The notes under the pieces were generated by a model that saw nothing but the letters and a program-made list of their open reading frames with translations, ran no database searches and had not been told where the DNA came from. The position numbers and the translations under genes are program-made. A stretch of DNA of 64,000 bases from Acidobacteriota bacterium (GTDB taxonomy: Bacteria > Acidobacteriota > UBA6911 > RPQK01 > CBDEGM01), in the NCBI GenBank assembly GCA_965237715.1, contig CBDEGM010000003.1:519913-583912 (forward strand). The letters run 5' to 3'. Below are positions 20,236 through 53,339 of this stretch, one piece after another. Position 1 is the first letter of the stretch, and every line of letters begins with the position of its first letter.

Positions 20236-21258
20236 GAAAACGACCTGACTATGGAAACGCAACCCCGGAAGACTTGGTGAGAGCTCTTCTGCGCGTGCAC
20301 CGGAAGACAGCCCGTTATCGGCAATCAGTTCCTGGTACATCAGTTGTTTCCCAGCCAAGCCCCGCACAACCCGTCTCATCTGGTGCAGAGTGTCCAGCTG
20401 GCGAAGGTTGTGCTTCCCAGCGAACTCACGAACATAGCGATCCAGATGTTTAGGACTGATCTTGTGAAAGACTCCCGTATGCGCCCTTTTGAGCATAGAC
20501 CAGAAGCTCTCGACGCCATTGGTATACGCTTTCCCTCGCACATACTCACCAATCGAGTGCTTAACCGTCTCATGATTCGGAAGGGTGTGGTAGGTCAAAG
20601 CGTCATCGGTGTAGATTTTGGTTCCCAGCTTGACGTGCTCCATAATGAAAAGGCTCATGGTCTCAGACTTGGTATTGCGGACAACTTGGGCGGAGACTTG
20701 ATTAGAGGATCGATCTTTGATCCCCGCTACAGCCATTTTGCCAGTCGGTCCACGACCACTCATCTGAGCTCTCTTGGTCTTGTTCATGTTCCTGCGCTTT
20801 CCTCCTATGTAGGTCTCATCGACTTCGACCGGGCCGGAGAAAGACGTTCCACCGTTTTTAGTTCTGGTCCAGGCTTCTCGAATTCTGTGGAGCATGAACC
20901 ATGCAGCGGGTTGACTGACCCCAATGTCGCTCGCCAACTTGGTGGAGGCGATGCTCTTCAAACTGGTCAGTTCCAGATAAATGGCCATAGCCCATTTGTG
21001 GAGCGAGAGGTTTGTTTTGGCAATGGGCGTCCCAGTGCGGACCGAGAAATACCGCTCGCAATCTCGGCACCGATACGGCATGGGCTTTCGGTTGGGCACG
21101 GTGTAGGTATTGGTGGACCCGCAATGCCCACAACACCTTTCCTCTGGCCACAGTGTCTTTTCAAACCACTCCTCAGCTGCTTTTTCGTTGGGGAACATGT
21201 CCATCAAGTGGATAATGTTGAGTTTCCTGCGTTGCCGGTTTCTTGTTTGTTTTCCCAT
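20224..21258 (-). CDS. IS1595-family (ISXO2-like) transposase
   Basis: N-terminal zinc ribbon CCGHCGS...YRCRDCERYFSVRTGT, then the ISXO2-like DDE domain (VEVDETYIGGK...). 344 aa. Confidence 0.85.
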   Translation of the reverse strand: MGKQTRNRQRRKLNIIHLMDMFPNEKAAEEWFEKTLWPEERCCGHCGSTNTYTVPNRKPMPYRCRDCERYFSVRTGTPIAKTNLSLHKWAMAIYLELTSLKSIASTKLASDIGVSQPAAWFMLHRIREAWTRTKNGGTSFSGPVEVDETYIGGKRRNMNKTKRAQMSGRGPTGKMAVAGIKDRSSNQVSAQVVRNTKSETMSLFIMEHVKLGTKIYTDDALTYHTLPNHETVKHSIGEYVRGKAYTNGVESFWSMLKRAHTGVFHKISPKHLDRYVREFAGKHNLRQLDTLHQMRRVVRGLAGKQLMYQELIADNGLSSGARAEELSPSLPGLRFHSQVVFSYL

Positions 21259-22207: not shown

Positions 22208-23275
22208 ATGGACAACATTTCATCGCTTCGAATGGAAATCAAGCAGCGTGGATGGTACAAAAAGGCGACTGGCAAAATACTTCTCGAGCTGGCGTTGCAG
22301 CTGACCGTAGCCCTGGGTGGAATAGCCGTTTTCATCATTTCAGACTCCATCTTTGTGTGCGCGTGCGCCATGCTGCTTTCCACGGCTGGTTCCATGGGAG
22401 TGGGTACTAACAGCCACACCTCGTCTCACTATGGAACAAGCGACAAGAAATGGCTAAATGAGCTTCTCACTTACTTCGGTTTTCCTGTATTTCTTGGACT
22501 GTCGGCCAGCTACTGGCGTTACATGCACGTGATTCGTCATCACCCTGCACCCAACGTCATGGGAATGGACATGGATCATGATCTCATGCCATGGTTCTCC
22601 ATGATCGAGAAACAAGTCCAGAAAACGACCGGGCTCCGCCGCTTCTACCATGAGCGAATTCAATCGATTGCATTCCCGTTCGCACTGGTGCTCAATGGTT
22701 TCAGCTTTCAAATTGCCGGGTGGCGGCACCTGCTTGCCGTTCTCCGAAATACACAGAAGCGGAAGAAGATTCACTGGATCGATCTGGGCGCCATGGTGAC
22801 CTACTGGGTGATCTGGCTGGGAGTTCCCATGGTTTTCTTTCCAGCCACGGACGTAGTGTTGTTTTATCTACTTCGGATCGGGTTGATAGGTTACGCGATG
22901 TTCGCAGTTCTAGCCCCCGGCCACTACCCCGCCGAAGCAGTCTGCCTTGCGAAGGATCACGGAGAGCAGGATTCCGTATTGCGGTTAACCGCGACTACGC
23001 TCAACTTTCGGACCGGACTGTTGGGGCGATTCATTTGCTCCGGCCTGGAGTATCAAATCGAGCATCATCTGTTCCCCGGTGTGAGTCACGTCTATTATCC
23101 GAAGATGAGCAAACTCGTGGAAGACTTCTGCCGGAAGAACAGGTATCCGTACCGCACTCTAAACTGGGACCAAGCTGTCTGGAAGAGCCTTGATGTGTTT
23201 CGTGCGCCGAAAGTGGTGCAACCTAGCCTGCAACGGACAGAGACGAAACGATCTGTCTTGGGCTTCGGGCAATAG
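22208..23275 (+). CDS. membrane fatty-acid desaturase family protein (His-box di-iron enzyme)
   Basis: Histidine boxes HVIRHH and [14 protein letters not shown], with several TM helices. Confidence 0.7.
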
Positions 23276-23291
23276 AGGAAGGACAAAGATC

Positions 23292-24953
23292 TTGTCGATA
23301 GAAGACCACTACGACGCCATCAGAGAATTGATTCATGTGGGCAAACAAAAAGGATATCTGGCTTACGACGAGGTGATCGAAGTCCTCCCTCACGACGTTT
23401 GTTCCTCGGAAAATCTGGATGACATCTTCAATCTTTTTGAGGATGCCGGGATCGAAATGATCGAACCCAGGCAGCGGTTCGAAGCAATCCAAAAGAGAAT
23501 CCTCACTAAGACTGAAACGGAAGACCAGGATCAGGATGTAGTTCTGTGGGCTAAGAGCCTGGACAAAAACCATGATGCGGTTCGAATCTATCTGAGGGAA
23601 ATGGGCACGGTGCCTCTCTTGAGCCGACAGGCCGAAGTGGAAATTGCGAAGCGGATTGAAAAGAGCCAGGAGACCGTGCTGAAAGCTTTATCTCAATCCC
23701 CGGTCGTGGTGGCCGAAGTGTTGAGGTACGGCGATGAATTGAGAAAGGACGACATCAATATCAAGGATCTGGTCAATTTCAATAATGAGGAGATCACCGA
23801 GGAGGTCCTGGTCAGGCGCCGCAAAGAGGTTTTACGTAGGATCAACAAGATCCGACACGAGGATCAGGAAGCTGCGAAAGTCCAAAAACGGTTGTGCAAG
23901 GCTCGCAAGGATGGACGGACATCTAAGAAACTTCTTTCCCAGCTGGCCCTCTATCGGATGCGCATGGAACGAGGGATCTGTCGGGTGAATCTCAATCCGG
24001 CCACTCGTGCCGAACTGGTCTGTACCATAAAAGATGCCGTAGGCCGAATCGTGGAGCTGGAGCGAGAAAGAAACAATCTGAAAAGGGTGCACGATTCCAC
24101 GCAGAGGGTCATTGAGACGAAACACACCAAGCTCCGCTTGCGGGAAATTGAAAAGGAGATGAAGGAGATCGTGGAGAAAGTCCCGGCTTCTCCTGCGAAT
24201 CTGAAAAGGACCCTAGCCACCATTAGGCAGGCAGAACTGGGAGCGGAGATCGCAAAGAAACAACTGGTGGAGGCCAACTTGCGGCTGGTCGTCTCAATCG
24301 CCAAAAAGTATGGCAAACGAGGGCTCGACTTCCTGGACCTCATCCAGGAAGGAAACATTGGGCTGATGACGGCGGTGGACAAATTCGACTACCGACGAGG
24401 CTATAAGTTTTCCACGTATGCTCACTGGTGGATTCGCCAGGGCATTACTCGAGCCATTTCTGACCAGGCCCGAACCATCCGTATTCCCGTCCACATGGTC
24501 GATGCCGTGAACAAGTTGATGCGGACATCACACTCTTTGACCCAGGAGTATGGTCGGGAGCCAACCTGGGAAGAAATCGCCAAGAAAATGGACATTCCGG
24601 TGAGCAAGGTCCGGAAAGTCTTCAAAACCACCCAAATGCCGATCTCCCTGGAGACACCCATCCGGGAAGGAGAAAACAGGTACTTGAGTGATTTTATTGA
24701 GGACCGCGGGGTGATTTCACCGGCTGACATCGCAACTGATATCCTCTTAAAGGATCAGACGGCAGCGGTCTTACAAAACTTGACTCCACGCGAAGCGCAG
24801 GTGATTCGCATGCGCTTCGGCATCGGGGATGGGAGTGAACATACCTTGGAGGAGGTGGGCCAACGTTTCTCGCTCACCCGAGAGCGGATTCGCCAGATCG
24901 AGGTCAAGGCACTGCGCAAGCTGCGGAAACCATGGCATAGTGCCCGATGCTGA
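23292..24953 (+). CDS. rpoD: RNA polymerase sigma-70 factor RpoD
   Basis: Regions 2-4: [35 protein letters not shown]..., region 4 [23 protein letters not shown] start at 23292 with an aggaagg RBS chosen over the overlapping upstream ATG; start is uncertain. Confidence 0.85.
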
Positions 24954-25025: not shown

Positions 25026-25200
25026 CACTGAGTACTCTCTTTCATAAATACGGTAACGTATGCGGATGGGGCGGGACGGGCCCATCTCTTTGTTGCTCCT
25101 CCTCGCCGATGTCTCGACATCGACTCGTCGTCGCGCCTCGATCTGGTCTGGGTCGCGCTCCCAACATACGTCATCGTATTTGTAAAAGTGAGTACTTAGT
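25026..25200. mobile_element. MITE-like palindromic element, copy 1 (AGTACT-terminated, about 175 bp)
   Basis: Ends are AGTACTCTCTTTCATAAATACG ... CGTATTTGTAAAAGTGAGTACT. The reverse complement of the interior matches the first ~150 bp of 51684..51976 at roughly 90% identity. Confidence 0.7.
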
Positions 25201-25212
25201 TGTATAGTCTGC

Positions 25213-26796
25213 ATGAGTTTCAATGTTGGAATAGTCAAGACGCGAACAGAAAGGGGTTTCTCCATGGGACTTCCGCGACCCAACAACGACGCGAGCATCT
25301 TTTTGGTCAATCCGGCACCCGCAGCGGAGCGAATTCAGTTCTCTTTTATCACTCCCAGAGCCTTGCCCGTGCTGGCGGCTGCCACGCCCGAGCGTTTCTC
25401 TGAAAGACTCAGGCTGATCGATCAAACTTTGGAAGAGTTTCCCCTTGACGAACTGCGATCTGGGGATCTCGTCGGGATCAGCATCCACACCTTTAATGCG
25501 ATTCATGGCTATGAATTGGCCCGCAAGGCCAAGAAACGAGGGGCAGTGGTGGTCTTTGGCGGGCCGCACACGTCGGTCTTCCCCGAAGAGACGCTGCGCT
25601 TCGGAGATGCAGCCGTCACGGGAGATGGTGAGGTGATTTGGGAGAAGTTGCTAGAGGACTATTGGAAAGGGTCTCTGAGCACCATTTACAAAGGGGGCCG
25701 GGTCAGCCCGGGAGATTTTAGACCGGCTCGTTGGGACCTTCTGCCTCTTGAAAAGTATCTCTGTGCCTCCATCCAAACGGTGCGCGGCTGCCCGAAACAG
25801 TGCTCCTTTTGCTCGGTTTGGGTGCAGGATGGCCGCGTCCCCAGGGTTCGCACCAACGACGCCATTTTGCAAGAGGTTCAATACCTTTATCAGGCCGGGT
25901 TTCGTCTGGTGATGTTTGCTGACGATAACTTTTATCCATACACCCTAACCGACATCGAGCAGGCCCGTTCAACGGAGGAAAGAAAACAGCTGGAAGAGGG
26001 AATGGAGCACCGTTTAGAACTCCTCCGCCGCCTGGAGTTCGAGGTCCCCAATGACATGTTTTTTTGTACGCAGATCACGATGGAGGTGGCCGATGATCCG
26101 GAATACCTGGCGGCCATGAAAAAAGCCGGAGTCGCAGGTGCGTTGATTGGCATCGAAACGATTACGGAAGAAGGGTTGAAGGCAACTCGCAAGTTTTTCA
26201 ACTCCACCGGCGAAACGCTTGCACAGAAATTGGAGACAATCCGAAGAGACGGGTTCCCGTACATCATGGGAGCTTTTATCTTCGGGATCGAAAGCGATAC
26301 GATTGAGAGCCTGGACGAGACGATCCAATTTGCGAGGGACTGCGGGATTGCACTGGCCCAGTTCATTCCGATGACTCCACTGCCTGGAACCGTGGACTTT
26401 AATTTGATGAGGAAGGGAAAAAAGGCGTTTAAAGAGATCAGGCCGGATTACGACTATTGGCTCGATCCCCAACACCCACGAATTCTTTACCACCACCCGC
26501 ATATGAAGGAGGGGCAGATTCTGGAGCGAGTCGAAAGGGCCTGGAAAGACTTCTACGGTGTCTTCTCGATCTTGAAACGGGCCAAGCGCTTTCGTTTCGT
26601 CCAGGATCCGAGGAAGTTTCTGGCCTACCTTGTGGTTTGCAGGGGGCTGCTGACGCGCTACCGCCGTTACGGGCTTTCGGCCGACAGCGCGGTACGCGGG
26701 ACCAAGCGAACATTCGCCACCTTCTTGGGGCGGCTTGCCTTGTCATTGATGAAAAGGGATCGAACCGACGTGGCTTGCCAACTACAGGACATGTGA
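25213..26796 (+). CDS. B12-binding domain-containing radical SAM protein (paralog 1)
   Basis: N-terminal cobalamin-binding-like domain (DLVGISIHTFNA...VVVFGGPH). Radical SAM CxxxCxxC as GCPKQCSFCSV. Confidence 0.75.
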   Translation: MSFNVGIVKTRTERGFSMGLPRPNNDASIFLVNPAPAAERIQFSFITPRALPVLAAATPERFSERLRLIDQTLEEFPLDELRSGDLVGISIHTFNAIHGYELARKAKKRGAVVVFGGPHTSVFPEETLRFGDAAVTGDGEVIWEKLLEDYWKGSLSTIYKGGRVSPGDFRPARWDLLPLEKYLCASIQTVRGCPKQCSFCSVWVQDGRVPRVRTNDAILQEVQYLYQAGFRLVMFADDNFYPYTLTDIEQARSTEERKQLEEGMEHRLELLRRLEFEVPNDMFFCTQITMEVADDPEYLAAMKKAGVAGALIGIETITEEGLKATRKFFNSTGETLAQKLETIRRDGFPYIMGAFIFGIESDTIESLDETIQFARDCGIALAQFIPMTPLPGTVDFNLMRKGKKAFKEIRPDYDYWLDPQHPRILYHHPHMKEGQILERVERAWKDFYGVFSILKRAKRFRFVQDPRKFLAYLVVCRGLLTRYRRYGLSADSAVRGTKRTFATFLGRLALSLMKRDRTDVACQLQDM

Positions 26797-49151: not shown

Positions 49152-49343
49152 GCTGGACGGGCTAGACTATCATCAACGAAGAAAAACTGCATGAGTGTGG
49201 TGGCGAATTCTTACTGGCCTTCTTATGGAAGCCGCCTCAGACGGCGAGGGGTAAAATCATTTGGTCAACGCGCCCTTGGAACCTGATGGAACTTGGAACT
49301 CAGCGAGCATACCTTACTATATTTAAGGAATGGTGTACGTAGG

Positions 49344-51638
49344 ATGAATCATACTCATGGGACCTGGGAGTCACTCCCCAGCCTGGTCACTGCCACCTTG
49401 TGCCTGTTCCTGTTTGGCTGTAATCATGTCTTGCCTCAGGAGCGAAGAGATACTTCCGGCGCAGAAGAGCCGGTGCCGGAAAAGCCAGCCGCATCAGAGC
49501 TGCCGAGGACCCAGACCCCGGGGCATCGCAGGATGCTCGATCTTCTCACTGAGATTGCTCGACGCACGCCGGAGGAGCATCCCTATCTGGGAGACCGGAG
49601 GGCACGTGAATTGCGGCAGCAGCTGGCGAGTTTGGACGAGGAGGAGGAGGACGCGGATCCTCTCGACCGGTGGCTACTCCACCTCCGCCTGGGAGCCGCT
49701 GAGCTGGATTTGGGGAATGTGCGAACCGGCATCGAGCATCTTTCTCGGGCTCATCAACTCCTACCCCAGGTAAAAGCGAAGATCAAACCGTTTTGGGCCA
49801 ATGAGACGATTTTCCAGCTCGGGATGGGCTACCTGCGGTTAGGCGAGATCGAGAATTGCGCGCTGCGCCACACGGCCGAAAGCTGTATTGTACCGATCCG
49901 GAAAGAAGGTGTGCATGTGCTGCAGGAAGGCTCGAGAAAGGCCATTCGGCATTTTCTCGAGTTATTGAACGAGACCTCGGAGGAAGAAGCCTCACACCTC
50001 TCGGCCCGGTGGCTGCTCAACATCGCCTACATGACGATCGGGGGCTATCCCGACGATGTGCCCGGGCGCCACCTGATCCCACCCAAGGCATTCGAATCTG
50101 AGATCGACTTCCCTCGTTTCCAGAACATTGCTCCGAAGCTGGGGCTGGACACGATGAGCTTGTCCGGAGGCGCGATCGTCGATGACTTTGACAACGATGA
50201 TTTTCTGGATATCGTCACCTCGAGCTGGGACGTTTCCGGACCGATGCGCCTGTTCCGAAACAACCGGGACGGTACCTTCTCTGAGCGCAGCCGGGAGGCC
50301 GGGCTGACGGGCCTGTATGGAGGTCTCAACCTGAAGCAAGCCGACTATGACAATGACGGCAACCTGGACATCCTGGTGCTGCGTGGCGCCTGGGCGGGAA
50401 AAGCGGGGCGACATCCCAACTCGCTCCTTCGCAACCAGGGAGACGGGACGTTTCGGGACGTGACCTTTGAGGCAGGACTGGGTGAGGTCCACTACCCGAC
50501 TCAAACGGCTGCCTGGGCAGACTACGACAACGACGGTGATCTGGACCTTTACATAGGCAATGAGGCAACGGCAGGCTTTGCCGCTCCCGGACAGCTGTTT
50601 CGCAATAACGGCGACGGCACCTTCACAGACGTAGCCGCCCAGGCGGGCGTCCAGAATCAGGGCTACACCAAAGGGGTAGCCTGGGGAGACTATAACAGCG
50701 ATCGATTTCCCGATCTTTACGTTTCCAACTACCAGGGTCCGAATCGCCTTTACCACAACAACAGCGACGGAACCTTTACGGACGTGGCGCCACGGCTGCA
50801 GGTGGGCAGGCCCAAGGTGAGTTTTCCGGTTTGGTTTTGGGATTTTGACAATGACGGCGTGCGGGATCTGTTTGTCCCCACATACGAAGGGTTCGTCGAG
50901 CATGTTGCGGCATATTACCTGGGCCTACCTCCCAAGTTTGAATTGGCTTGCCTGTATCGCGGCGACGGGCAAGGTGGATTCCAGGAGGTGGCCAAAGAGT
51001 ACAATCTCGACTATCCGATGCTTCCCATGGGATCGAATTTCGGTGATTTGAACAACGATGGCTACCTCGATTTTTACCTGGGTACGGGCGATCCGGCTTT
51101 CAAAAGCCTGATGCCCAACATCATGTTTCTGAATGATCGAGGCAAAAGGTTCACCAATGTAACTATGGGGGGCGGTTTTGGCCACCTGCAGAAGGGACAC
51201 TCGGTGGCCTTTGCCGATCTGGACAACGACGGAGATCTGGACATCTTCGAGCAAATGGGGGGCGCCTTCCCCGGCGATCCCTTCAGCGATGCTCTCTATG
51301 AAAACCCGGGGTTTGGCAATCACTGGATCACGGTAAAGCTGGTCGGGGTCCAGTCCAACCGCTCGGCATTGGGAGCTCGTATCCGAGTCGAGATCCTGGA
51401 GGAGGGAAAGATGCGGTCGATTTACCGAGACGTCGACAGCGGCGGCAGCTTTGGCGGTAATCCCCTCCGTCAAACCATCGGCCTGGGAAGGGCCAGCAAG
51501 ATTCGGGTGCTCGAGGTCTTCTGGCCGGCGACCGGGCTTACCCAAGTCTTCTCCAACATCCCTTTCGATCAGATCATTCAGATTGTTGAAGCCAGCAGCG
51601 AGTACACGACTTTGTCTCTGAAGAGGCTTCGTTTTTGA
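49344..51638 (+). CDS. CRTAC1-like lipoprotein: N-terminal helical/TPR-like region + FG-GAP repeats + ASPIC/UnbV C-terminal domain
   Basis: Lipobox LFLFGC. Repeated FDNDDFLD/YDNDGNLD/YDNDGDLD beta-propeller calcium-binding repeats. C-terminal NRSALGARIRVEI...GGSFGG UnbV/ASPIC domain. Confidence 0.7.
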   Translation: MNHTHGTWESLPSLVTATLCLFLFGCNHVLPQERRDTSGAEEPVPEKPAASELPRTQTPGHRRMLDLLTEIARRTPEEHPYLGDRRARELRQQLASLDEEEEDADPLDRWLLHLRLGAAELDLGNVRTGIEHLSRAHQLLPQVKAKIKPFWANETIFQLGMGYLRLGEIENCALRHTAESCIVPIRKEGVHVLQEGSRKAIRHFLELLNETSEEEASHLSARWLLNIAYMTIGGYPDDVPGRHLIPPKAFESEIDFPRFQNIAPKLGLDTMSLSGGAIVDDFDNDDFLDIVTSSWDVSGPMRLFRNNRDGTFSERSREAGLTGLYGGLNLKQADYDNDGNLDILVLRGAWAGKAGRHPNSLLRNQGDGTFRDVTFEAGLGEVHYPTQTAAWADYDNDGDLDLYIGNEATAGFAAPGQLFRNNGDGTFTDVAAQAGVQNQGYTKGVAWGDYNSDRFPDLYVSNYQGPNRLYHNNSDGTFTDVAPRLQVGRPKVSFPVWFWDFDNDGVRDLFVPTYEGFVEHVAAYYLGLPPKFELACLYRGDGQGGFQEVAKEYNLDYPMLPMGSNFGDLNNDGYLDFYLGTGDPAFKSLMPNIMFLNDRGKRFTNVTMGGGFGHLQKGHSVAFADLDNDGDLDIFEQMGGAFPGDPFSDALYENPGFGNHWITVKLVGVQSNRSALGARIRVEILEEGKMRSIYRDVDSGGSFGGNPLRQTIGLGRASKIRVLEVFWPATGLTQVFSNIPFDQIIQIVEASSEYTTLSLKRLRF

Positions 51639-51641
51639 TCC

Positions 51642-53339
51642 ATGAGCAAATCTCTGCTTCTGATGTTCTCCTTGGCAACTCTTAGTACTCCCTTCCATAA
51701 ATACGATGACGTATGTTGGGAGCGCGACGGAGACCAGATCGAGGCGCGACGACGAGTCGATGTGGAGACATCGGCGAGGAGGAGCAACAAAGAGATGGGC
51801 CCGTACCGCCCCAACCCTTTGGGCGGATGGGGGTTGCGGGCGATCTCTTTGTCGTTTGTCGTCGACGATGCCTCTGCATCGCCTAACGATGCCACCGCAT
51901 CGCCTCCTCCTCTCTTCGCGACCTCACCTCGCAAGCCCCATCCGCATACGTCATCGTATTTATGGAAGGGAGTACTAAGTCCGGCTCCGGGACCAACGCA
52001 ACTGCGGGCCTTCCCACAAGGGGAGGATAGTGAAGAAGCGGTGAGCTTGGCGCGTCGGTACGCCCGGGAAGAGAAGCTTCTGAAGGCCGTGTCCGAGTAC
52101 CGGCGGGCACTGCAGTGGGACCCCACTCATGAACCGGCAGCCTTGGAATTTACGAGCCTTCTCTATGGTATGGGTCGCCATAAGGAGGCCTACGCCGTCA
52201 GCCGCCAGCTCCTGCGCGATCATCCAGAGCTGCTGCGGGTACGTCTCAATTTCGCTTCTCTTCTGCAGAAGGCCGGAAAGCTGGAAGAGGCGGAAACCGA
52301 GACTCAGATGGTATTGTCGGAACTGGAAGGAAAGGTCTCCGAGGACCACCCGATTCGAGCGTACGCGCTGCACCTGCTGGGAAGGAATCGACTCAATAGT
52401 GAACGCTACGGAGAAGCAGAGAAATATTTCCTGAAGGTGATCGGGTGGAATCCCGACTTTTCCGAAGCCCATCTCAATCTGGCACAGTTGTACACACTGA
52501 TGCCGGAGAGCAAGGAGAGAGCAGTCCTGCATTTTCAGAAGGTAGTGGAACTACTGCCCGAGTCGGCATTTGCCCGCCTGAAATTTGGGGAAACCCTGCT
52601 CAATATAGGGAAGAGCCGCCAGGCCATCGCCCATCTGGAAAAGGCGGTTGAGTTGGCTCCCGATTCCGCAGCAGCGTACTATCGCCTTGCTTCCGCCTAC
52701 CGCAATGAGGGCGACATTGCAAAAACCGAACGGATTCTTTCCCGCTTTCACACACTCGACTCCAAGAACCGGTTCTGGGAGAGATCCCGGGCAAAAGCTC
52801 AGGCCTTCTATAAGGAAGGAACAGAGAATCTGAAGCGTGGCGACGTGGGTCACAACAACCAAAAGAACGTGGAAAAGGCCCTCAGGGTATTTGAGAAAGC
52901 AGTGGCACTCTCACCCGATTATCATGAAGCTCATTCCGGCCTGGCTCAAGGCTATCTGGATCTTTCCCGTCCCCGGGAAGCGCTAAACCATATTGATCAG
53001 GCTCTCTCACTGCAACCCTACGACTCCCACTGCCACTATATTCGAGCCCTCTGCCTACAGGGGCTCAGAAACATTACCGCTGCCCTCGAGGCGCTGGAAA
53101 ACGCCATCAACCTGGATCCCTCTCTGGCCCAATACCACAATCTTCTGGGGAATCTCTTCTTCAGCAACGGCCAGTACCAGGAAACCGTATCTGCTTACCG
53201 GAAGGCGGTGGATTTGGAGCCCTTGAATGCCCTGTACCATCTGAACCTCTCCTCCGCCTTAGCGAAAATTAACCGCTTCGATGAAAGCAAGAAGGAGAAG
53301 GAACGGTATCAAAAGCTTCTCACCAAACCGTCGGAGTAG
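51642..53339 (+). CDS. TPR-repeat protein; 5' region traversed by the MITE (true start may be GTG near 52036)
   Basis: About 10 TPR units from residue ~130 onward. The ORF is open through the 293-bp MITE, which begins after a signal-like MSKSLLLMFSLATL. Confidence 0.6.
   Translation: MSKSLLLMFSLATLSTPFHKYDDVCWERDGDQIEARRRVDVETSARRSNKEMGPYRPNPLGGWGLRAISLSFVVDDASASPNDATASPPPLFATSPRKPHPHTSSYLWKGVLSPAPGPTQLRAFPQGEDSEEAVSLARRYAREEKLLKAVSEYRRALQWDPTHEPAALEFTSLLYGMGRHKEAYAVSRQLLRDHPELLRVRLNFASLLQKAGKLEEAETETQMVLSELEGKVSEDHPIRAYALHLLGRNRLNSERYGEAEKYFLKVIGWNPDFSEAHLNLAQLYTLMPESKERAVLHFQKVVELLPESAFARLKFGETLLNIGKSRQAIAHLEKAVELAPDSAAAYYRLASAYRNEGDIAKTERILSRFHTLDSKNRFWERSRAKAQAFYKEGTENLKRGDVGHNNQKNVEKALRVFEKAVALSPDYHEAHSGLAQGYLDLSRPREALNHIDQALSLQPYDSHCHYIRALCLQGLRNITAALEALENAINLDPSLAQYHNLLGNLFFSNGQYQETVSAYRKAVDLEPLNALYHLNLSSALAKINRFDESKKEKERYQKLLTKPSE
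51684..51976. mobile_element. MITE-like palindromic element, copy 2 (293 bp), lying inside the 51642..53339 ORF
   Basis: Ends are AGTACTCCCTTCCATAAATACGATGACGTATG ... CATACGTCATCGTATTTATGGAAGGGAGTACT. Its first half matches the reverse complement of copy 1. Confidence 0.7.

Follow-up and report, generated by a model that had tools for sequence, protein, structure and literature searches.

Two related repeats in their gene context

Two related repeats lie in the window, the whole stretch of 64 kb analysed here, whose genes have their nearest named homologues in Acidobacteriota and Vicinamibacterales. The first repeat (copy 1) is located between an rpoD-like sigma-70 gene and a gene for a B12-binding radical SAM protein. 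The second (copy 2) is found behind a CRTAC1-like gene at the beginning of a gene encoding a TPR-repeat protein (Table 1). A first-pass annotation of this DNA had placed both at gene boundaries. This holds for copy 1, but copy 2 is located inside the 5'-end of the TPR coding sequence.

Table 1. Positions of the two repeats, their parts and the neighbouring genes, counted from the first nucleotide of the window.
Feature	Position	Strand	Remarks
rpoD-like sigma-70 gene	23190..24953	+	upstream of copy 1; Pfam Sigma70 regions r1_1, r1_2, r2, r3, r4
Triplet TGA flanking copy 1	25029..25031		duplication position; preceded by C at 25028
Copy 1 (very probable MITE)	25032..25195	-	164 bp, short form; orientation opposite to copy 2
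Copy 1 terminal inverted repeat, low-coordinate arm	25032..25062	+	GTACTCTCTTTCATAAATACGGTAACGTATG; nhmmer E = 2.5e-8
Copy 1 terminal inverted repeat, high-coordinate arm	25165..25195	-	26/31 identity to the other arm
Triplet TTA flanking copy 1	25196..25198		followed by G at 25199; middle base differs from the TGA partner
B12-binding radical SAM gene	25265..26796	+	downstream of copy 1; Pfam; likely start; open reading frame opens at 25213
FG-GAP/UnbV_ASPIC (CRTAC1-like) gene	49293..51638	+	stop codon 3 nt before the TPR start codon
TPR-repeat gene	51642..53339	+	565-codon open reading frame through copy 2; 467 codons without the 294-bp insertion
Triplet TTA flanking copy 2	51682..51684		C at 51681 precedes it; a single TTC in the orthologue
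Copy 2 (very probable MITE)	51685..51975	+	long form (fold-back) of 291 bp; insertion point behind codon 14 of the TPR gene
Copy 2 left terminal inverted repeat	51685..51715	+	31/31 identity to the right arm
Segment present only in copy 2	51808..51934	+	127 bp, missing from copy 1; GCCCCA at both edges
Copy 2 right terminal inverted repeat	51945..51975	-	matches the 32-nt degenerate terminus
Triplet TAA flanking copy 2	51976..51978		followed by G at 51979

A degenerate terminus of 32 nt had been described as common to both copies. It matched the window exactly four times, at 25031-25062 and 51684-51715 on the forward strand and at 25165-25196 and 51945-51976 on the reverse strand, with no match expected by chance (100 shuffles). 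When 16 termini of the wider family were combined into a profile, no further termini were detected in the 64-kb window. The terminal inverted repeats, previously estimated at about 30 bp, comprise 31 bp. Final boundaries were set from the junctions of the whole family, and both copies run from GTAC to GTAC. Thus, the two size variants were confirmed, but with corrected lengths of 164 bp instead of 175 bp and 291 bp instead of 293 bp.

The reverse complement of copy 1 could be aligned with copy 2 as two separate blocks (51685-51807, 51935-51975) with 152 of 164 identical positions (92.7%), in good agreement with the interior of about 150 bp and 90% identity in opposite orientation first reported. 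The extra internal segment of copy 2, originally given as about 120 bp, separates these blocks. According to inverted-repeat analysis, it corresponds to the first half of the copy 2 interior in inverted and diverged form; copy 2 as a whole is a near-complete fold-back, its two halves being diverged inverted versions of each other. The GCCCCA motifs on both sides of the 127 bp fit a microhomology-mediated deletion, and from these motifs we infer that copy 1 probably arose from the long form by loss of this segment. Folding of the RNA, a check recommended in the first-pass annotation, yielded strongly folded structures for both copies, with -75 kcal/mol (z = -7.6) for copy 1 and -175.3 kcal/mol (z = -14.2) for copy 2.

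Homologues of the radical SAM protein comprise 510 aa, which places the likely start of the gene at the ATG at 25265. Copy 1 therefore forms a strong predicted hairpin about 70 nt upstream of this gene. A promoter-like site directed at the radical SAM gene was observed at 25180-25208; it is a hybrid of a -35-like TTGTAA in the right arm of copy 1 and a -10-like TATAGT in the flank, separated by a 17-nt spacer, and is a match to the consensus only. Look-ups of an empty site for copy 1 led to an orthologue of the radical SAM gene with 90% identity, which has a different upstream gene, and to one with 95% identity, whose contig begins 39 nt upstream of the start codon. In sister genomes, gene order ahead of the radical SAM gene is altered by a rearrangement adjacent to a copy of IS481.

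Copy 2 sits 43 nt inside the TPR gene, just after a signal-peptide-like N-terminus (MSKSLLLMFSLATLSPAPGPTQ...), and adds 98 stop-free codons in-frame (291+3 bp). A search with the insertion-free reconstruction found a protein of 467 aa (P0122; N-terminus MRNSLVLLFFLATVRPALGPTQ...) with 86% identity over 100% of the length. Its size equals 565 minus 98 aa. The corresponding locus (L038) is syntenic, with the same arrangement of UnbV_ASPIC, TPR and UnbV_ASPIC genes as in the window. At the insertion point L038 reads TTGGCAACCG-TTC-GTCCGGCTC, whereas the window reads TTGGCAACTC-TTA-[291 bp]-TAA-GTCCGGCTC. Hence, copy 2 represents a precise presence/absence difference of 291+3 bp relative to the orthologous gene. 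Transposase genes of the IS5/IS4 type (DDE_Tnp_1) and of the IS481 type were also present near the orthologous loci (L038, 6119-7357 and 18892-20046; L040-L042, 1-631).

Relatives, target site and full-length partner

The scan for relatives was performed with the inner 24 nt of the terminus, CTTNNANAAATACGNTNACGTATG, from which the AGTACT end was deliberately omitted. This core was found at 24 loci, two of them in species-representative genomes (a Gemmatimonadales MAG and an NC10 MAG) and 22 in metagenomes, and had no matches in viral contigs. Core matches also agreed with the window at the unconstrained positions, except for one AT-rich marine locus seen four times (L009, L013, L019 and L022). 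These matched the pattern but had no CTNAG-GT terminus and had one flank in common, and were treated as one unrelated chance locus. The flanks of the relatives diverge exactly at or upstream of the CTNAG pentamer. Most of the core matches were elements of 205-211 bp belonging to one lineage, in which some copies are devoid of an internal G+C-rich module. Other lineages (L005, the second element in L004, and L038 at 20259-20470) have similar ends and unrelated interiors, and related lineages were found at more than 15 metagenome loci. The combination of conserved ends, free interiors and unrelated flanks points to recognition by a transposase and not to a shared RNA.

Several of these loci provided additional observations. 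At an apparently identical chromosomal site, L002 (about 4150-4060) and L003/L004 carry the NC10-type MITE with or without a G+C-rich hairpin module of about 88 bp, a variation that was seen across different samples. In L004 a pair of different MITEs from the same terminus superfamily lie directly side by side (1533-1661 and 1657-1900) and have one TAA triplet in common, which suggests that the CTAAG restored at the end of one served as the insertion site of the other. Two loci were rejected as sources of a transposase: L001 (Gemmatimonadales) has a solo terminus-like motif beside an ORF of the beta-lactamase family, which is not a transposase, and L020 has a truncated end without a transposase.

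The 96-residue translation of copy 2 matched 65 representative protein clusters (P0385-P0449), 5 of them below 1e-30 and 20 below 1e-10. These were mostly short ORFs, each with different flanking sequence. Thus, the element is not restricted to the two copies of the window; such a restriction, together with a lack of conserved termini, was what the first-pass annotation had named as evidence against the family. As the long form is covered in most of these alignments, copy 2 probably corresponds to the commoner form, from which copy 1 would be derived by deletion.

To define the target site, junctions were tabulated for 26 insertions of independent origin, comprising 9 full-length IS and 17 MITEs. 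Every element extends from GT to AC and is flanked according to C|TNA|GT...AC|TNA|G. Identical flanking repeats were present in 20 of the 26 insertions (8 of 9 full-length elements, 12 of 17 MITEs); these direct repeats were TAA, TTA, TCA and once the 4-bp repeat TCAA, which was found in place of a 3-bp TNA at the MITE copy of L012 (185-313). Both copies of the window are among the six exceptions; the triplets of copy 1 are TGA and TTA, those of copy 2 TTA and TAA, with a mismatch in the middle base in either case. The duplication is therefore shown family-wide only and not on the two window copies; we tentatively attribute their discordant triplets to later mutation.

Other readings of the flanks were rejected. 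An inversion between the two inverted window copies predicts TCA to the left of copy 2, where TTA is observed, and an extension of the inverted repeats would pair TAA with TTA, which is not the pattern seen. A TA duplication, which the first-pass annotation had proposed from TA-like flanks, fits copy 2 and L024 but is excluded by the TCA/TCA repeats of L008 and the symmetric GT..AC ends elsewhere. The TCA/TCA repeats and the identical triplets imply that the target of this clade is an interrupted palindrome, of which 3 bp are duplicated. Its flanks thus depart from the TA insertion with 2-bp duplication that defines IS630 elements and agree with the CTNAG target and TNA duplication that define the Tc4 clade. 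In the literature searched, with ISfinder outside its reach, no description of a bacterial IS630 element with TNA duplication was found; likewise, the literature searched, which extended neither to ISfinder nor to MITE catalogues, held no matching description of the MITE family.

The closest full-length element with these ends was found on an unrelated metagenome contig (L024, 344-1623). It is 1.27 kb long and has left and right inverted repeats. Its left terminus, CTTAGTACTCGCTTTCATAAATACGCTAACGTATG, is identical to the low-coordinate arm of copy 1 at 29 of 31 positions and to the left arm of copy 2 at 27 of 31; the right end (1590-1623) repeats the terminus imperfectly in inverted orientation. 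In the window MITEs, both arms are similar to the left end of the IS and not to the right end. Two overlapping frames, orfA (376-744) and orfB (611-1576), are joined across GGGTTTTTCCCCCC, a T5C6 run. The fused protein matched Pfam HTH_32 (1e-16) and DDE_3 (1.2e-13) above the gathering thresholds, in addition to HTH_29 and HTH_23, and reached 149.5 bits with the NCBIfam model NF033545 'IS630 family transposase' (cutoff 100). By manual motif assignment its catalytic triad is D213, D298 and E335 (DD36E). More than 8000 homologues of this transposase were found below 1e-20. On longer contigs, 13 full-length copies have the same architecture and ends, and all encode DDE_3 proteins. Since nine independent insertions have the same architecture, it is unlikely that the ends of L024 are chimeric with the transposase gene. 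These results bear out the IS630/Tc1-mariner-type parent that had been surmised. A tblastn search with the L024 transposase yielded no homologue within the 64-kb window, in line with the earlier remark that no transposase is associated with the copies.

About 24 nt inside the left terminal repeat, L024 (399-408) and L025 (about 2181-2190) contain a second ..CTCACGTATG.. motif that is absent from the window MITE; it may be a second transposase-binding site. In L031 and L037 (914-3556) an IS630-like IS is split by an IS encoding a DDE_5/DDE_Tnp_1 transposase, and the TAA/TAA duplication on the outside of the split element is preserved.

Origin of the two repeats

With high confidence we consider both repeats to be copies of one non-autonomous DNA transposon (MITE), for whose mobilization an IS630-family DDE transposase acting in trans is presumably responsible. 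At 164 and 291 bp, both copies also lie below the size of about 500 bp that is usual for MITEs. The terminal inverted repeats, the many unrelated contexts, the empty orthologous site of copy 2 and the window without a transposase homologue agree with the non-autonomous element postulated at the outset. In the proposed mechanism, the HTH domain of the transposase would bind the conserved inner repeat block AAATACG-N-T-N-ACGTAT, and the element would be excised by double-strand breaks. Its 3'-ends would then be joined to a 3-nt-staggered cut at C|TNA|G, and subsequent gap repair would produce the TNA duplication.

The target site itself might suggest a different parent. TNA duplication in C|TNA|G has been reported as a hallmark of the NuwaII group of PIF/Harbinger-related elements, which prefers C|TNA|G with a 3-bp duplication (PMC4482050), and it differs from the canonical TA of IS630 and Tc1/mariner (PMC2170065). 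Elements of the IS5/PIF-Harbinger type (PHIS) typically make 3-bp TNA or TWA duplications, some with preference for C|TNA|G, so that the repeats could be MITEs of such a transposon. However, every full-length element with these termini encodes a transposase of the DDE_3/NF033545 type rather than one with DDE_Tnp_1 or DDE_4; by tblastn, nothing else was detected between the repeats, and none of the 13 loci contains an IS5/Harbinger-type transposase. A PHIS parent therefore seems highly improbable. The same applies to the idea that the copies are non-mobile, conserved structured RNAs or regulatory DNA hairpins (terminator, attenuator or sRNA gene) whose similarity reflects function. The very stable predicted folds, the conservation of the 24-nt core across phyla, and the -35-like hexamer of copy 1 that combines with a -10-like hexamer of the flank towards the radical SAM gene would agree with a role of this kind. 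Nevertheless, no Rfam family matched at gathering score in the whole window, and the elements occur in unrelated contexts, in both orientations and also inside coding sequence. Precise presence or absence at an orthologous site and flanking duplications across the family are expected of mobile DNA, and the restriction of conservation between lineages to the termini is a signature of transposase recognition; we consider a non-mobile structure scarcely credible.

Slightly more probable, but still very unlikely, is an exaptation of copy 2, which would serve the TPR protein as an in-frame coding module, comparable to the Rickettsia palindromic elements, and would be selected as translatable sequence. 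The ORF is open over all 98 inserted codons, an independent assembly calls the same full 565-aa TPR protein (P0362), and other proteins have termini derived from the MITE. In addition, stop-free frames are frequent, namely 3 of 6 in copy 2 and 4 of 6 in copy 1, where a first-order Markov simulation that ignores the palindromic correlation between strands expects 0.4 and 1.0 (P about 0.007 and 0.013, respectively). An excess of such frames was seen only in the lineage of the window and not in other MITE lineages. As 294 is a multiple of three, the reading frame is preserved wherever the element lands, and with half of the frames of copy 2 free of stops an open ORF has about an even chance. Sister strains from two independent samples (L044 and L045) carry copy 2 inserted at the same site, the segments 2340-2960 of L044 and 540-1160 of L045 corresponding to window positions 51620-52260. 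Both have a 22-bp deletion inside copy 2 between CATCGC repeats and a 7-bp deletion downstream in the TPR gene. These deletions break the TPR frame, the gene being called from Met223, and argue against exaptation. Moreover, the MITE has diverged by about 3% in the sister strains, compared to about 1.5% for the flanking coding sequence. This suggests that copy 2 is neutral or deleterious and that constraint on the gene carrying it is relaxed. Neither copy 1 nor copy 2 shows evidence of a host function.

Relation to known elements and implications

A MITE derived from an IS of the IS630 family is a known kind of selfish DNA, and the current understanding of how MITEs work is unchanged by our findings. 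The sole unusual feature is that a bacterial IS630 clade uses the Tc4-like target C|TNA|G. As in IS630 of Shigella and ISY100 of Synechocystis, the partner elements are 1.26-1.27 kb long with imperfect terminal inverted repeats, their transposase has an N-terminal HTH and a C-terminal DDE_3 domain and passes NF033545, and short non-autonomous derivatives retain only the ends. In the clade described here the transposase is derived from two overlapping frames across the T5C6 run. Characterized IS630 members insert at TA, often within CTAG, with a 2-bp duplication (PMC2170065). In contrast, this clade duplicates a 3-bp TNA in C|TNA|G.

The CTNAG target and TNA duplication are features in common with Tc4, a member of the Tc1/mariner superfamily from nematodes, arthropods and tardigrades, for which C|TNA|G insertion with TNA duplication has been described in eukaryotes (bioRxiv 10.1101/2023.11.06.565293). 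An origin of Tc4 within Ecdysozoa has been proposed. Tc4 is eukaryotic and has a DDD triad, whereas the transposase found here appears to be DD36E by manual assignment and scores as bacterial IS630. Tc4 was first described as a fold-back element, a shape that it has in common with copy 2. The NuwaII group of PHIS elements has the same C|TNA|G preference with a 3-bp duplication but differs in the transposase family, since no IS5/Harbinger-type gene lies between such termini.

Rickettsia palindromic elements (RPE) are small palindromic repeats found in-frame inside protein-coding genes. Copy 2 resembles them as a small palindromic repeat located in-frame inside a gene. Unlike RPE, this family is characterized by distinct terminal inverted repeats, duplicated target sites and a transposase partner that can be identified, and the in-frame copy 2 decays in sister strains.

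Tentatively, the data may be taken to indicate a very large, apparently undescribed clade of bacterial IS630-family elements with at least five MITE lineages, which would target C|TNA|G with a 3-nt instead of a 2-nt staggered cut across Acidobacteriota-like, NC10 and Gemmatimonadales genomes. Such a clade could be the prokaryotic relative of Tc4, or the spacing of the cut could have switched independently while the transposase fold stayed the same. If true, a 3-nt cut in bacterial IS630 elements would extend to them a behaviour that within the superfamily has so far been ascribed to the eukaryotic Tc4. A bacterial IS630 clade duplicating TNA provides a natural comparison for the spacing of target cuts in IS630/Tc1/mariner transposases.

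For genome evolution, copy 2 is a clean, dated case of a MITE landing in-frame, with the ORF open in one strain and the gene decaying in sisters. It also has consequences for annotation. The public gene call for the TPR gene of the window (P0121, 514 aa) takes a methionine within the MITE as its start, and dozens of public 'hypothetical proteins' are translations of the element. Some of the 65 clusters are real proteins with N- or C-termini derived from the MITE. Examples are P0402, a RecA-like ATPase whose C-terminus stems from the element, and P0394, which resembles membrane transporters and has an N-terminus of the same origin.
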